Part shown: positions 3,668 to 26,937 of the stretch, piece by piece
How the letters are laid out: every line of letters starts with the position of its first letter
Numbering within the stretch: position 1 is the first letter of the stretch
NCBI GenBank assembly: GCA_030679255.1
Contig: JAUXTO010000013.1
Span: 256,189-307,295, forward strand
Length of the DNA: 51,107 nucleotides
Origin: Candidatus Gottesmanbacteria bacterium
Lineage (GTDB): Bacteria > Patescibacteriota > Microgenomatia > UBA10105 > UBA927
Reading direction: 5' to 3'
Made by a program: the position numbers and the translations under genes
Notes under the pieces: model-generated
What the model was told of the DNA's origin: nothing
The model's input: the letters and a program-made list of their open reading frames with translations, nothing else
Databases searched by the model: none

Positions 3668-4213
3668 TTATTTCTCAAACGGCATACCCAGATACGTCAA
3701 TAACTTTTTGGCGTGTGTGTCGCTCCCGGACCTGGTCACAAATGTTACTTCAAATCCCCGTGTTTTATCAATAAGCGTATATTCTAGCTCCGCAAATATC
3801 GTCTGATCGCTTATCCCCAAGGTGTAATTGCCGTGTCCGTCAAAACCGGATGCCGATACGCCCCGGAAATCCCGCACCCTTGGGAGCGCAATGGTCACAA
3901 GCCTCGTGAAAAAATCAGACATAAAACGGCCCCGGAGGGTCACTTTGAGCCCAACGGCATCGCCCGCACGGAGTTTAAACGTCGAAATTGCCCGTTTGGC
4001 CCTTGTCACAGACGGCTTCTGGCCGGTGATGACGGCAAGCTGGGCCGCCACCTTTTCGATAACTTTCTTATCTGCGAGAGCCTCGCGGCCTATGCCGCAG
4101 TTAACGACAATTTTCATAAGACGCGGGATGGCCATAGGGTTGGTAATTCCCAAATCTGTCTTTAATTTCGGTATTATTTCTTTCTGATATGTTTCTTGTA
4201 TAGTCATATGCAT
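3668..4213 (-). CDS. rplE: 50S ribosomal protein L5
   Basis: [13 protein letters not shown]...[19 protein letters not shown], in operon order. The start could instead be the third-codon Met. Confidence 0.94.
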
Positions 4214-4598: not shown

Positions 4599-4973
4599 CT
4601 AATACACTTCGGAAGCCATGCTGACAATTTTATGAAACCCCCGCTCCTTGAGCTCCCGGGCAACCGGCCCGAAAATACGGGTACCCCGAGGATTTTTATC
4701 ATCTGCATTATCAATGATCACTCCCGCATTATCATCAAAACGGATATACGAGCCATCCTTGCGGTGATACTCTTTGTGTACCCGGGCGACGACGACTTTC
4801 ACCATTTCGTCTTCTTTGACAAGCCCTGTGGGATCAGCCTTCCTGATGACACATTGCACAATATCTCCAAGACTTGCAAACTTGCGCTTAGAAGATCCGT
4901 AAATATGGATCACGACCATTTCCCTGGCCCCTGAATTGTCCGCAACTACGAGTGATGTACGTCGTTGAATCAT
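4599..4973 (-). CDS. rplN: 50S ribosomal protein L14
   Basis: [19 protein letters not shown]...[15 protein letters not shown]. Confidence 0.95.
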
Positions 4974-5236
4974 AGTTTTTCGATAACGATAAAGTGTTTC
5001 CGTTTGCTCATCGGTATGGTTTCTTTCATTTTGACGGTATCTCCTACCTTGATATCCGGGAGTGTATTATGTGCCGCAAAACGATGGCTCTTGCGGACCG
5101 TCTTTTTGTACAGTTTGTGGGCGTACGTACGCACGACTTGTACGATGACGGTCTTTGTCATTTTGGTGGATATCACTTTGCCCGTCATAATTCTTCCTTT
5201 TCCGGTATTTGTCGATGGTGTCATTTCTTTTTTCAT
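4970..5236 (-). CDS. rpsQ: 30S ribosomal protein S17
   Basis: [38 protein letters not shown]. It overlaps the rplN start by 4 nt. Confidence 0.94.
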
Positions 5237-5259
5237 ATGATGAATCTCAAGCCAGACTG

Positions 5260-5469
5260 TTATGATACCAGAGAAAGCTCCCGCTCGCGCATGATCGTTT
5301 TACTTACGGCAACAACGGTACGTTTTGTACGATATAAACGCAGATTTTTCATTTGCTTGGTCTTCCGTTCGACTCGACCTTTCAGCATCTCTGTTTCAAG
5401 CGTTTGTATCTGCTTGACAAGTTCTGCGTCAGACATGGCCCGTAATGATTGTTTTTCCTTTTTTTTCAT
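5260..5469 (-). CDS. rpmC: 50S ribosomal protein L29
   Basis: 69 aa helical protein ([22 protein letters not shown]) lying between rplP and rpsQ. Confidence 0.9.
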
Positions 5470-6745: not shown

Positions 6746-7087
6746 TTGATGCTTACCTACTTCATCAGTCAACGTCACCCGTATATGGGTCATTCTTTTT
6801 TTAAACGCATGCGCCTGACCCTTGGATACCGCGTGCCAGCGCTTCATTGCCGGACCCGGTAGTACTTCTATTGATTTGATCCGCAGTAGCGTCGTATCTG
6901 CTTTTTTTTCTTTCGCCCCTGCTATAGCTGATGCCAAAACGTCTGCAAGCGGTCGGGCGACCCGTTTGGGCAATTGTCCTAATTTGACGAGCGCTCCCGC
7001 GGCCGTCAACCGATGAATCGAACGCGCTACTAATTGTACTTTGCGCGGACCCATCTTCACATATTTGGCAATCGCTGAAAATTCCAT
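6686..7087 (-). CDS. rplV: 50S ribosomal protein L22 (with low-complexity C-terminal tail)
   Basis: AIAKYVKMGPRKVQLVARSI...LRIKSIEVLPGPAMKRWHAVSKGQAHAFKKRMTHIRV, in operon order. Confidence 0.94.
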   Translation of the reverse strand: MEFSAIAKYVKMGPRKVQLVARSIHRLTAAGALVKLGQLPKRVARPLADVLASAIAGAKEKKADTTLLRIKSIEVLPGPAMKRWHAVSKGQAHAFKKRMTHIRVTLTDEVGKHQAPKAKHQTIAKQQTETNKN

Positions 7088-23679: not shown

Positions 23680-23726
23680 TTTCTATTAAGGGAGCATGAG
23701 TGATGGGCTTAAGGTATTATAGAGAT

Positions 23727-23807
23727 ATGCAAACCATAACAATGTTTGAAGGCCAAAAAATCCGTCGGACATGGGATAGTAAAAAGGAAAAGTGGTATTT
23801 TTCGTAA
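23727..23807 (+). pseudogene. Bro-N-type N-terminal gene fragment
   Basis: MQTITMFEGQKIRRTWDSKKEKWYFS then a stop. It matches the FxGxKIRxxxxxxxxWxFS N-terminal pattern of the full Bro-N/DinD-like gene at 45364-46209 and is followed by the hairpin cggttac-aaacc-gtaaccg (23814-23832). Confidence 0.55.
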
Positions 23808-23923
23808 ACGAAACGGTTACAAACCGTAACCGGTCGAACGTGGTCAGCGGATCAAATTATCTTCCACAACTATTTAATAAGAAAAATAATATTATGCAAA
23901 CAGAAATTTTGTAATTCATTCTT

Positions 23924-24916
23924 ATGAAGGAAATACCAAAAACTCAAATCATAATCTACGAAGCAGAAAATGGTAAAACGCGCATAGAGGTGCGTTTTGA
24001 GAATGAAAATGCATGGTTGACGCAGAAACGAATAGCAGAATTGTTTGATTGTAGTATTGATAATGTTTCTTTGCATCTTAAAAATATTTTCTTTGAGCAC
24101 GAGCTTGATCCAAAAGCAGTAATCGAGGAATACTCGATAACTGCCAGCGACGGCAAGCAATACAGAACGAAACATTACAACCTGGAGGCCATTATCTCCA
24201 TCGGATACCGGGTAAATTCAATACGAGGCACCCAGTTTAGGATTTGGGCAACGGAGCGTCTTAAAGAATATATGATCAAAGGGTTTACCTTGGACGATAT
24301 CCGTCTCAAGCAAGGCGGACACAAGTCCAGATACTTTGAAGAACTTTTGCAACGCATCCGCGATATCCGCAGCAGCGAGCGGATGCTCTATCAAAAAATC
24401 ACGGATATATATGCAACAGCTATCGATTATCGTAAAGACGCCAAAGAAACAGAACTTTTTTTCCAGACGGTACAAAATAAGATGCACTACGCCGTAACCG
24501 GAAAAACTGCGGCCGAGATTATCTCCGAGCGCGCAAGTCACATCAAGCAAAATATGGGACTGACGAACTTCCCGGGGATGCATCCGATCAAACGCGATAT
24601 TTATATAGCGAAAAACTATCTTGATGAAAAAGAGCTGAAACTTCTCAACCGCGTTGTTGATGCTTATCTATCATTTGCTGAAATCCAAGCCCAAAGTGAA
24701 CATGTAATGAAAATGGCTGATTGGACTGGCAAACTTGATGAATATTTGTCTCTGATGGGGAAAGGAGTGCTTCAACATTCGGGTAGTGTGAGCGCAATTG
24801 ATGCCGAGACGAGAGCGGAGAAAGAATTTGCCTCCTATAAACGGGTGCAAGACAAAAACTACATTTCAGATTTTGATAAAATAGTAAAGAGGTTGGCAAA
24901 AAAAAGTAACAAATGA
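23924..24916 (+). CDS. RhuM-family protein
   Basis: IIIYEAENGKTRIEVRFENENAWLTQKRIAELFDCSIDNVSLHLKNIF...NLEAIISIGYRVNSIRGTQFRIWATERLKEY is a characteristic RhuM N-terminal and core sequence. The gene is visibly AT-richer than its neighbours. Confidence 0.85.
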   Translation: MKEIPKTQIIIYEAENGKTRIEVRFENENAWLTQKRIAELFDCSIDNVSLHLKNIFFEHELDPKAVIEEYSITASDGKQYRTKHYNLEAIISIGYRVNSIRGTQFRIWATERLKEYMIKGFTLDDIRLKQGGHKSRYFEELLQRIRDIRSSERMLYQKITDIYATAIDYRKDAKETELFFQTVQNKMHYAVTGKTAAEIISERASHIKQNMGLTNFPGMHPIKRDIYIAKNYLDEKELKLLNRVVDAYLSFAEIQAQSEHVMKMADWTGKLDEYLSLMGKGVLQHSGSVSAIDAETRAEKEFASYKRVQDKNYISDFDKIVKRLAKKSNK

Positions 24917-24985
24917 TAAAGAACAAAATAACATTCCCGGAACACAAAGAAGTGGGCATTATGAGTGAATTTACAGTAATCTGAT

Positions 24986-25120
24986 ATGCAAATAAAAACA
25001 ATCTTAACATGTCCAAAATGTGGAGAAGCGCAGAAAGCCACTATGCCAATAGATGCCTGCCAATATTTTTACAAATGCCAAAAGTGCGGTGAGATGTTAG
25101 AATCAAAACTAGGAATATGA
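24986..25120 (+). pseudogene. Truncated duplicate of the GDCCVxC gene 5' part
   Basis: MQIKTILTCPKCGEAQKATMPIDACQYFYKCQKCGEML then ESKLGI and a stop. Nucleotides 24986-25100 parallel 25987-26101, and the GDCCVxC motif itself is missing. Confidence 0.8.
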
Positions 25121-25152
25121 CAAACTGAAATTAGAGTTTACTGAAAAAACAC

Positions 25153-25974
25153 ATGATAAATAAAAGTAAAAAGATGATTGTTCAAGGTAGAGAAATAAAT
25201 ATTATTCTTCAAAAAGATAATGAAGATTTCATTTCCCTTACCGATATATTGAAAGCAAAGGATGGTGATTTCTTTATTTCCGATTGGCTCAGAAATAGAA
25301 ATACCGTTGAATTCCTGGGAATATGGGAAAAGCTACATAACCCAAATTTTAATTATGGCGAATTTGCCACAATTAAAAGTCAAGCAGGATTGAACAGTTA
25401 CAAAATAAGCGTAAAAGAGTGGGTCAAAAAGACGAACGCTGTCGGTCTCAAGGCAACTGCGGGACGGTATGGGGGGACATATGCCCATAAAGATATTGCT
25501 TTTGAATTTGGCATGTGGATCAGTCCTGAATTTAAAATTTATCTCATCAAAGAGTTTCAGAGACTAAAAAATGAAGAGAGTGAAAAATTACTCTTGGGTT
25601 GGGATATAAAACGCACGTTAGCAAAAATAAACTATAAAATTCATACAGATGCTATCAAAGAACATTTGATCCCTCTCCAACTTACGAAGCCAGAAGTCAA
25701 TGTAATCTATGCCACGGAGGCTGATGTACTTAATATGGCATTGTTTGGTAAAACCGCCAAAACGTGGCGTGATGAACATCCATCCAAAGACGGCAATATT
25801 CGTGATTATTCGAATGTAACTCAACTGGTGGTGCTGGCAAATCTGGAAGGAATAAACGCCGAACTTATCCGACGCAAATTGCCTCAAAATGAACGCTTAA
25901 TACAGCTAAATATTATTGCAATTACTCAAATACAGTCACTGGTAGGGAATAAATCAATACAGCAATTGAAATAA
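25153..25974 (+). CDS. KilA-N domain-containing protein
   Basis: FISLTDILKAKDGDFFISDWLRNRNTVEFLGIWE...AGRYGGTYAHKDIAFEFGMWISPEFKIYLIKEFQRL is a typical KilA-N domain. Confidence 0.85.
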   Translation: MINKSKKMIVQGREINIILQKDNEDFISLTDILKAKDGDFFISDWLRNRNTVEFLGIWEKLHNPNFNYGEFATIKSQAGLNSYKISVKEWVKKTNAVGLKATAGRYGGTYAHKDIAFEFGMWISPEFKIYLIKEFQRLKNEESEKLLLGWDIKRTLAKINYKIHTDAIKEHLIPLQLTKPEVNVIYATEADVLNMALFGKTAKTWRDEHPSKDGNIRDYSNVTQLVVLANLEGINAELIRRKLPQNERLIQLNIIAITQIQSLVGNKSIQQLK

Positions 25975-25986
25975 TATTGTTTCAAT

Positions 25987-26169
25987 ATGCAAACAGAAAC
26001 AAATTTGACCTGTCCAAGATGTGGAAAAGCGCAGAAGGCGACTATGCCCACCAATGCCTGTCAGCATTTCTATAAATGCCAAAAGTGCGGTGAGATGTTA
26101 AAACCAAAAGAGGGAGACTGTTGCGTCTTTTGTTCGTATGCCGATAGCAAGTGTCCGTCAAAGCAGTAG
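25987..26169 (+). CDS. GDCCVxC-domain small metal-binding protein
   Basis: 60 aa: CPRCG...CQKCGEMLKPKEGDCCVFCSYADSKCP. Confidence 0.8.
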   Translation: MQTETNLTCPRCGKAQKATMPTNACQHFYKCQKCGEMLKPKEGDCCVFCSYADSKCPSKQ

Positions 26170-26183
26170 GATCATGCCTTTCT

Positions 26184-26567
26184 ATGAATTTCGATTACAC
26201 CGTTACGACCAAGAAAGCGTTTGATACAGCCGTGAAATCGGTTGAAGAGGAAACGAAAACCGCAGGGTTCAGGGTGCTCTACATTCATGATGTCGCCGCT
26301 ACTTTGAAAGAAAAAAGTTTTCAGATTGAACCGTTTAAGATTATTGAAATCTGCAATGCCAAAAGCGCGTATGCAGTATTACAGGCAGACATAAAGATTG
26401 GGCTTTGTTTGCCGTGTAAAATAAACGTGTATCAAAAAAATGATAAAACATTCATTTCCGGTATGAGGCCAACGGTCCTGCCTCAATTCTTCCCAAACGC
26501 CGACCTTGGCAATTTACCTGATGAAATTGATGCTATTATTAGAGGAATTATTGATAAGAGTAAATAA
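26184..26567 (+). CDS. DUF302 domain-containing protein
   Basis: MNFDYTVTTKKAFDTAVKSVEEETKTAGFRVLYIHDVAATLKEKSF...IIEICNAKSAYAVLQAD...LPCKINVY. The start is assigned to the internal ATG at 26184. Confidence 0.75.
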   Translation: MNFDYTVTTKKAFDTAVKSVEEETKTAGFRVLYIHDVAATLKEKSFQIEPFKIIEICNAKSAYAVLQADIKIGLCLPCKINVYQKNDKTFISGMRPTVLPQFFPNADLGNLPDEIDAIIRGIIDKSK

Positions 26568-26610
26568 GAGCCCGCCATAGGCTCGTGGCTCTCGCTGATT
26601 GGCGGACATA

Positions 26611-26649
26611 AGAAACGCTAAGCCCTCATGAAACTTGGCAAGCGTTTCT
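26611..26649 (+). promoter_or_regulatory. Inverted repeat AGAAACGCT-N21-AGCGTTTCT immediately upstream of the RBS of the 26667 ORF
   Basis: The 9-bp arms are at 26611-26619 and 26641-26649, followed by ATTGGAGGTG and the ATG at 26667. A paralogous structure is at 26883-26920. Confidence 0.55.
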
Positions 26650-26666
26650 ATTGGAGGTGAAAAATT

Positions 26667-26801
26667 ATGATGGGATATGGATGGGGAGGAACTATGATGG
26701 GATCATTCGGCGTGTATGGACTTTTGACGTGGCTCGCGCTTATCGTATTTTTAGTCTTGGGAAGCTTGTACTTTTGGAAAGGGTTAACGAAGAAAAAATA
26801 A
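26667..26801 (+). CDS. Small Gly/Trp-rich single-TM protein (hypothetical)
   Basis: 44 aa, below the ORF-track cutoff: MMGYGWGGTMMGSFGVYGLLTWLALIVFLVLGSLYFWKGLTKKK. A GGAGGTG Shine-Dalgarno sequence lies 8 nt upstream. Confidence 0.5.
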   Translation: MMGYGWGGTMMGSFGVYGLLTWLALIVFLVLGSLYFWKGLTKKK

Positions 26802-26882
26802 GATGTAGCCCGCCTACGCTTGCTTTGCGCCTTTTCACTACTATTCGTAGACGGCGCAAAGAGCGCGTGAGCGGTGGGTTTA

Positions 26883-26920
26883 AGAAACACTACGTCTCGT
26901 AAGACTCGACAAGTGTTTCT
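26883..26920 (+). promoter_or_regulatory. Inverted repeat AGAAACACT-N20-AGTGTTTCT immediately upstream of the RBS of the 26938 ORF
   Basis: The 9-bp arms are at 26883-26891 and 26912-26920, followed by AAAAGGTGGTG and the ATG at 26938. It is a paralogue of 26611-26649. Confidence 0.55.
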
Positions 26921-26937
26921 AAAAGGTGGTGATAATT

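Follow-up and report, generated by a model that had tools for sequence, protein, structure and literature searches.

The stretch of DNA analysed here (the window) comprises 51,107 nucleotides of a groundwater Candidatus Gottesmanbacteria genome (GenBank assembly GCA_030679255.1, contig JAUXTO010000013.1, positions 256,189 to 307,295), and all coordinates given without a locus handle are positions in it. It carries an AT-rich accessory islet of 2.9 kb (23684..26570, no strand assigned; delimited by alignment with the related loci L010 and L011), in which the 5' end of a gene of the GDCCVxC type is repeated on the plus strand ahead of a RhuM gene and a KilA-N gene. The order is stub, RhuM, stub, KilA-N, intact GDCCVxC gene. 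The first-pass annotation, which had proposed this layout from the letters of the window, was right in doing so: it is a true series of GDCCVxC 5' ends with a single-gene module after each. We lean towards an origin of the islet by serial homology-assisted recombination at the 5' end of the GDCCVxC gene, with the stubs as scars of the successive events. Single-gene defence candidates of the RhuM and KilA-N types are embedded in many unrelated operons across bacterial phyla, and this locus and its relatives provide a readable record, in which fragments of former neighbours are carried along, the head of the displaced gene is left behind, and one working copy of the host gene is kept.

The series of GDCCVxC 5' ends

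The intact GDCCVxC gene (X2) occupies positions 25987..26169 and encodes 60 aa. Its 5' end is found a second time to the left of KilA-N as stub B (X1, 24986..25120), which consists of GDCCVxC codons 1–43 followed by an isoleucine codon and a stop. In a repeat search the two copies form a direct repeat of 125 nt with 83% identity (24984–25108 and 25985–26109, at a spacing of 1001 nt), in agreement with the duplication noted in the first pass. Stub A (23893..23906), located in front of RhuM, repeats the gene start exactly over 14 nt (TATGCAAACAGAAA). This 14-mer occurs at 23893 and 25986, with no third exact copy in the window, and as an exact repeat it flanks the entire block from RhuM to KilA-N. 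A search with the 16-mer TATGCAAACAGAAATT at an edit distance of at most 2 returned three matches in the 51-kb window (23893, 25116 and 25986), where about 0.023 are expected per islet-like random sequence.

The match at 25116 belongs to a degenerate version of the gene start, followed by TT (TATGACAAACTGAAATT, 25116..25132, located by fuzzy search), which begins directly after the last homologous codon of stub B and lies at the left edge of the KilA-N module. The junction found there, nucleotides 1–13 of the GDCCVxC gene followed by TT, is the same as that in front of RhuM. The remnant of a Bro-N gene at 23727 opens with ATGCAAAC, which resembles the GDCCVxC start, as had been pointed out before. 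Up to five copies of the gene start lie on the same strand within 2.3 kb (23727, 23893, 24985, 25116 and 25986), and the repeats within the window are 76–86% identical. A near-palindrome of 22 nt, ATTGAAATAATATTGTTTCAAT (25965–25986), encompasses the KilA-N stop codon and the spacer to the GDCCVxC start at the right-hand cassette junction.

Membership of the NCBIfam family NF041374 was assigned above the curated cut-off of 40 bits, with the zinc ribbon and the GDCCVxC motif covered. The 60-aa product matches the profile with an E-value of 5e-27 (93.8 bits, profile positions 2–56 of 58) and contains the motif as GDCCVFC; judged by this match, the intact gene is a member of the GDCCVxC domain-containing (seleno)protein family. 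The 44-aa product of stub B reaches 5e-15 (55.4 bits) over profile positions 2–39 of 58 only and lacks the motif, and it is accordingly classified as a fragment of a family member, not as a member itself. For annotation, short open reading frames such as this 44-codon stub are to be read as scars, not as genes.

X1 and X2 show 9 synonymous and 11 non-synonymous differences in their codons, with every cysteine retained. In codons 1–38, the 8 amino-acid differences are confined to columns that vary in the family alignment, and no conserved position is affected. From its sequence, stub B looks like a recently working allele rather than an old, decaying duplicate. The synonymous and non-synonymous counts were considered as a means of telling decay in situ from a foreign allele, and dropped, since both histories predict about 9:11 on a rough expectation; more can be learnt from the fact that conserved columns are avoided.

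The intact copy has a composite ancestry. Nucleotides 1–57 of X2 are identical at 52 of 57 positions (91%) to the first of two copies in L152, and nucleotides 76–183 match the copy in the groundwater contig L217 at 99 of 108 (92%), so X2 reads as a mosaic of L152-like and L217-like lineages. L152 contains two full-length GDCCVxC genes with a 309-aa gene between them, and has neither RhuM nor KilA-N. Both X1 and X2 are nearer to the first L152 copy than to the second, and are therefore not the paralogue pair of L152. Among 83 other GDCCVxC loci, 8 have DUF302 and 5 have Bro-N, and none has KilA-N or a close RhuM nearby. The adjacency of GDCCVxC and DUF302 without RhuM or KilA-N, which had been suggested as a check in relatives, is seen in L124 and L126. 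Exact look-ups of the GDCCVxC and KilA-N proteins returned no record, and literature searches on GDCCVxC, and on RhuM together with KilA-N, returned nothing.

The modules and the fragments they carry

The oldest layer of the array appears to be the Bro-N gene. In the closest GDCCVxC relatives (L072, L151 and L152/153; 82–83% identical in protein), a Bro-N gene of 274–277 aa lies upstream of GDCCVxC. In L072 and L151 it directly adjoins GDCCVxC, and in L152 one gene intervenes. Both ends of such a Bro-N gene are retained in the window. The 5' remnant (23727..23807, plus strand) comprises 26 codons of a 274-aa gene of the PDC-S13 type, and is 87% identical in nucleotides to L152 614–704 and 92% identical over 26 aa by tblastn. 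The 3' remnant of the same gene (23836..23893, plus strand), ending in VVSGSNYLPQLFNKKNN, corresponds to the last ~16 codons and aligns with the 3' ends that Bro-N has in L152, L072 and L151. Approximately 690 nt of the interior are deleted, and a hairpin of 7–8 bp (CGGTTAC-AAACC-GTAACCG, 23814–23832) lies at the deletion joint.

The 13 nt of GDCCVxC start that follow the end of Bro-N stand exactly where the gene begins in L072 and L151, and stub A aligns with the GDCCVxC start of L072 (5001–5013). The short stub that the first-pass annotation had placed before RhuM is thus a genuine remnant, at a junction of Bro-N stop and GDCCVxC start like those in L072, L151 and L152. The starts of Bro-N and GDCCVxC covary within loci, with CAGAC in both genes of L151 and CAAAC in both genes of L072. 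The KilA-N leader shares 16 matching nt with an internal part of the L152 Bro-N gene; this was taken as chance, as several equal-scoring matches occurred in the same search.

The RhuM gene (23924..24916, plus strand; 330 aa) matches PF13310 with an E-value of 9e-104. Its nearest relative, 84% identical in protein, is found in L217 in the order multicopper oxidase, RhuM, nucleotidyltransferase, GDCCVxC, TfoX_N, DNA_alkylation. By blastn, the module at 23893–24980 (1,088 nt) is 85% identical to L217 2970–4057 over 1090 nt. The leader, stub A included, is identical at 41 of 41 positions (23893–23933 and L217 2970–3010), and the 13-nt match proposed in the window is therefore kept beside RhuM in another genome. 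The conserved leader of the RhuM module corresponds to 23893–23923, and stub A forms both its first bases and the old Bro-N/GDCCVxC junction.

Behind RhuM, a degenerate copy of a multicopper-oxidase 3' end (TFPEHKEVGIMSEFTVI, followed by a stop) is located at 24931..24984 on the plus strand. It corresponds in register to the oxidase C-terminus HIPEHME[SA]GMMSKFTV[LI] and its stop, and matches the oxidase ends of L217 and L083 at 37–38 of 54 nt. A comparable copy stands at the same place after RhuM in L217, and no oxidase gene is adjacent in the window. The sharing of stub A and the oxidase tail with L217 implies that RhuM was once inserted after nucleotide 13 of a GDCCVxC gene located behind an oxidase gene. 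As read from these fragments, about 70 nt of the oxidase/GDCCVxC junction would have been duplicated at that earlier insertion, and the unit of GDCCVxC nucleotides 1–13, RhuM and oxidase tail would later have moved as a block into its present context. The presence of former-neighbour fragments in the RhuM module argues for recombination through host-gene homology and not through a dedicated core. An inverted repeat of 12 nt with a 5-nt loop, GCAGTAATCGAG..CTCGATAACTGC (24116–24144), lies inside the RhuM coding sequence.

The KilA-N gene (25153..25974, plus strand; 273 aa) matches PF04383 with an E-value of 3e-25, and both gene calls of the first pass are confirmed by these domain matches. KilA-N homologues number more than 8000, and the best 120 among them are 72–87% identical to the query; where an organism is named, the sources include Patescibacteria, Nitrospirota, Margulisbacteria and Sphingobacterium. 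Across four aligned loci, DNA homology of ~85% extends from about 10 nt before the ATG to the stop codon, with no flanking sequence common to the cassettes. A similarity between the 3' flanks of the window and L004 had an estimated nominal P of ~0.02 and was not built on.

A near-perfect palindrome of 32 nt, TTTTAATTATGGCGAATTTGCCACAATTAAAA (25347–25378), is located in the KilA-N coding sequence and is kept in all four aligned KilA-N loci. In several metagenomes from groundwater and rock, variant 32-mers with 2 letters different are found as distinct words of high depth (105 in run X1 and 320 in run X3), and the contigs of the source assembly break at this palindrome. In the sequencing runs, the region is present in the source sample only, and the other runs share only the conserved palindrome.

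The three families are known from collections of defence candidates. Full-length matches to PADLOC models were obtained for RhuM (PDC-S05, 4e-134), KilA-N (PDC-S22, 5e-127) and the full-length Bro-N protein of L152 (PDC-S13, 1.5e-119), and on these model matches we regard RhuM, KilA-N and Bro-N as single-gene phage-defence candidates only. In the related contigs inspected they are found together in arrays with ATPase, Fic and toxin-antitoxin genes. RhuM-like genes occur in restriction-modification loci (Anantharaman et al. 2013, PMC3710099). The families here are the same as those candidates and as RhuM in such loci; what hosts them here, by contrast, is an islet of metal/thiol-redox type instead of a BREX or restriction operon. 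A literature search found no account of how genes of the RhuM and KilA-N types enter host operons, and the duplicated target stubs described here bear on how embedded defence candidates get in.

Related arrays and the proposed assembly of the islet

The arrangement of stub, cassette, stub and intact gene appears from the contigs inspected to be general, and is found with other target genes. In L220, a PD-(D/E)XK stub of 16 codons, fused in frame, is followed by RhuM, a stub of 10 codons, a second RhuM, a stub of 8 nt and Bro-N, and the right end of the array consists of a 30-nt RhuM tail and the intact PD-(D/E)XK gene. The same PD-(D/E)XK stub precedes RhuM in L002 and L210. In L171, RhuM is positioned between a 5' stub of an integrase gene and an intact integrase copy. 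The groundwater contig L004 carries four cassettes (KilA-N, a Bro-N fragment, Fic and RhuM), each after a whole or partial copy of a ~170-nt repeat unit (3843–4010 in full; 4859–4975, 5222–5322 and 6786–6956 partial or slightly diverged). The unit, which has no Rfam match, includes a GGGGACGGTCC dyad, a hairpin resembling a terminator and a short stretch led by an ATG. In the groundwater Patescibacteria contig L215 (3001–3874), KilA-N lies between a gene with a tRNA-binding domain and the prolyl-tRNA synthetase gene, and is flanked by a 24-nt repeat, 83% identical, that corresponds to the last 24 nt of the upstream gene. The likeness to the receiver-stub array of the same window, which had been drawn in the first pass, also holds.

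The flanks upstream and downstream of cassettes were compared, with a null obtained by shuffling the flank pairs between loci. Far above this null are the window, L004 and L002; on viral contigs, flank repeats beyond chance were found at only 3 of 45 RhuM loci and at none of 9 KilA-N loci. Break points and repeat lengths vary between arrays, with repeats of 8 to ~130 nt. In L220 the stubs extend to codon 16, codon 10 and nucleotide 8. In the window both cassettes join after nucleotide 13 of the gene start, followed by TT, yet stub B ends at nucleotide 128. No integrase or recombinase was detected by Pfam in the islet or among the 20 window open reading frames scanned, none was called in L002, L004, L210 or L220, and neither transposase nor reverse transcriptase was found in the islet or the other arrays inspected. 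Likewise, the cassettes carry no recombination site of their own: different arrays have different repeats, and these are target-derived.

Under homology-assisted assembly, the starting state would have been a Bro-N gene directly before GDCCVxC, as suggested by the relatives. The RhuM and KilA-N modules would then have been stacked ahead of the GDCCVxC gene, every event cutting the copy then present and leaving its head (13 nt and 128 nt), while downstream a complete and partly foreign copy was put in place or retained; the interior of Bro-N would have been lost afterwards. Lacking a recombinase or site of their own, the modules may travel with fragments of former host genes, such as the GDCCVxC start and the multicopper-oxidase 3' end, which would serve as portable homology. 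Recombination could follow either of two routes. A circle of stub and cassette, looped out between direct repeats, might integrate by a single crossover; this route predicts a truncated copy, an insert and an intact chimeric copy, and its product resembles X1, KilA-N and X2. Alternatively, one end might be anchored by homology and the other joined illegitimately (homology-facilitated illegitimate recombination). The lack of an integrase and of a shared flank site, together with the variable break points, favours recombination with host-gene fragments.

Several observations weigh against this reading. Both window cassettes sit at the same break point, which pure illegitimate joining does not predict and which would require a shared ancestral leader or a site preference. 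Repeats of 14–24 nt (the gene-start copies of 14–16 nt in the window, and the repeat in L215) are too short for ordinary RecA-dependent crossover. The younger stubs of L220 are identical to the intact gene, which would also fit target duplication at insertion. A possible donor, that is, a contig with KilA-N directly before GDCCVxC, was not found among the 83 GDCCVxC loci, and the sequencing evidence consists of assembler contigs of the source sample. Finally, the comparators are distant, the closest orthologous genome being only ~82% identical in protein. The shared break point, the short repeats and the identical L220 stubs keep a target-duplicating or site-preferring mechanism alive, and a recombinase or nuclease cutting at ATGCAAACAGAAA, if found, would refute homology-assisted assembly.

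Such a dedicated mechanism, which we consider possible but clearly the less probable explanation, would place cassettes of RhuM, KilA-N and Bro-N, each the size of an ORF, in the first codons of host genes or at gene junctions. Site-preferring or target-duplicating, and supplied in trans or by the cassette proteins, it would copy a target stretch of 8 to ~130 nt and regenerate the host gene, and the core proposed in the first pass would move from a 27-nt run to the gene start. The up to five gene-start copies, the common junction at nucleotide 13 plus TT, the exact 14-nt repeat around the RhuM-to-KilA-N block and the covariation of Bro-N and GDCCVxC starts in L151 and L072 would all fit. So would the precise ORF size of the cassettes, the younger L220 stubs, and the way in which every duplicated segment stops at the point of insertion and reaches across a gene junction, as seen for the window RhuM module and the Bro-N of L220. 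It is weakened by the lack of any recombinase, transposase or reverse transcriptase in the islet or inspected arrays, by break points and repeat lengths that vary widely, by window repeats that are not fully identical, by cassette flanks without common sequence across loci, and by the rarity of flank repeats on viral contigs. With similar reserve, RhuM, KilA-N and Bro-N could be seen as a class of ORF-sized mobile genes that copy 8 to ~130 nt of their target, the stub acting as a homing arm at the next host; the DNA-binding proteins of the cassettes, or perfect palindromes in their coding sequences, might take part in that mobility. If a target-duplicating mechanism were true, it would represent a new kind of gene mobility, and a single, undescribed way of embedding defence genes would have given rise to the GDCCVxC, receiver and PD-(D/E)XK arrays.

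The remaining explanations are less probable still. The stubs might be ordinary tandem GDCCVxC paralogues with their own partner genes, truncated by unrelated RhuM and KilA-N insertions and by deletions, and would then be uninformative on the arrival of the cassettes. We regard this as unlikely. The two full-length genes of L152, separated by a 309-aa gene and free of RhuM and KilA-N, do provide a precedent; the gene start within 1 nt of stub B could be a simple deletion joint of neighbouring units, and the Bro-N gene does show a deletion. The L152 genes, however, are not the X1/X2 pair, as both window copies are nearer to the first. The reading would also require two separate events that both stopped precisely at a GDCCVxC start and truncated the copy before it. 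In another genome, too, RhuM is accompanied by the 13-nt stub and the oxidase stub, and the pattern recurs with unrelated genes. Classical att integration at the 27-nt run AAATGCCAAAAGTGCGGTGAGATGTTA, catalysed by a tyrosine or serine recombinase in trans and close to what the first-pass annotation had envisaged, is highly improbable. The run is indeed identical in both copies, with only ~80% identity upstream. It is not the point of divergence, though: homology continues in register for 14 nt beyond it (10 of 14 identical, ESKLG versus KPKEG), up to the Gly43 codon. A run of this length has a P of 0.078 among 21 mismatches placed at random in 125 nt, it is missing from the RhuM stub, and it is present at 26 of 27 positions in the GDCCVxC genes of L217 and L084, which have no adjoining cassette; nor was an integrase found in the islet or scanned ORFs. 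The core has no dyad symmetry by eye, and a dif/Xer-type site was discarded. Of the nested-integration proposal, the logic of gene-head stubs left behind, with an intact gene at one end, stands; its att core and its resident target are not supported.

Homology-assisted assembly has a close counterpart in known arrays. For the C-terminal orphans of Rhs and CDI systems and the effector-immunity arrays of T6SS, homology-facilitated illegitimate recombination was put forward (Kirchberger et al. 2017, PMC5361080). Serial acquisition, a truncated conserved piece left by each older module, a single functional copy, mutually diverged stubs and the lack of a dedicated recombinase are shared features. 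The window, like L220, shows a series of truncated copies between modules with one intact copy at the end; its copies are diverged alleles (83% for X1 and X2), and the intact copy is chimeric. The differences lie in the geometry and the parts. The stubs here are 5' heads with the anchor downstream, whereas there they are 3' tails with the anchor upstream; each module is a complete, independent gene placed upstream of the conserved one; among the stubs are 3'-end pieces of an upstream neighbour; and the anchor is a 60-codon zinc-ribbon gene of metal type in place of a toxin. By this analogy the mechanism may resemble sequential displacement in mirrored form, and the array is a mirrored, 5'-side variant of known displacement-type recombination arrays, with known candidate defence genes.

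Other systems share part of the pattern. Islands that target gene ends, in tRNA genes and elsewhere, regenerate their target gene, and integron cassettes are single-gene units in the same orientation. The islet likewise keeps its target intact by a copy on one side and consists of single-gene units in one orientation, but it has no integrase, no attC-like site and no fixed crossover point, and its repeat is target-derived and of 8 to 130 nt. Campbell-type single crossover of a circle that carries a truncated gene fragment yields a truncated copy, the insert and an intact chimeric copy. The order X1, KilA-N, X2 and the mosaic nature of X2 fit this product, whereas the stub-plus-cassette circle is only proposed here and some repeats are too short for RecA-dependent crossover. 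If assembly is homology-assisted, and assuming natural competence, it would explain the spread of recombinase-free genes among small-genome bacteria.

The islet and its setting

The islet has a GC content of 31–42%, compared with 45–58% in the flanks. The AT-rich block seen in the first pass is therefore real; its right end, however, lies at ~26.6 kb, so that the block (23.7–26.6 kb) includes GDCCVxC and DUF302. The DUF302 gene (26178..26567, plus strand; PF03625, 2e-17) is the last of the islet. For comparison, 61 loci were taken around orthologues of the neighbouring rhodanese-fusion gene in Gottesmanbacteria, Woesebacteria and other Microgenomates assemblies. Their conserved order is DUF1573, CcdA-like, rhodanese fusion, (a 289-aa protein), DUF2933, a small membrane protein, Crp on the minus strand, VKOR and DsbA. 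GDCCVxC, DUF302, RhuM and KilA-N are absent within 8 kb in 61 of 61.

Against the closest relative, L010, the edges of the islet fall at 23683/4 and ~26570, just past the DUF302 stop codon, and ~2.9 kb in the window stand in place of 37 nt. It is bordered by the DUF2933 gene on one side and, on the other, by the leader of the small membrane-protein genes. Because the whole array is absent from the orthologous loci, the GDCCVxC "target" is itself part of the inserted islet, and the earlier view of it as a resident gene of the lineage had to be abandoned. A version of the islet free of cassettes was not found. Rfam scans of the window, L002 and L004 returned no RNA family, and promoter-like and terminator-like sites were not above chance.

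A different islet is found in L085, in an orthologous neighbourhood with a rhodanese tail 97% identical and a 289-aa protein 61% identical; it carries an internally deleted Bro-N gene (132 aa) and GDCCVxC. Judging from L085, the spot after the 289-aa and DUF2933 genes may be a recurrent insertion hotspot. Immediately to the right of the islet, the window has an extra paralogous unit (26571–26936) relative to L010, located before a 95-aa gene and consisting of a leader and a gene for a 44-aa Gly/Trp-rich membrane protein (26667–26801). This unit is present in some relatives (L022, L026 and L033) and absent in others.

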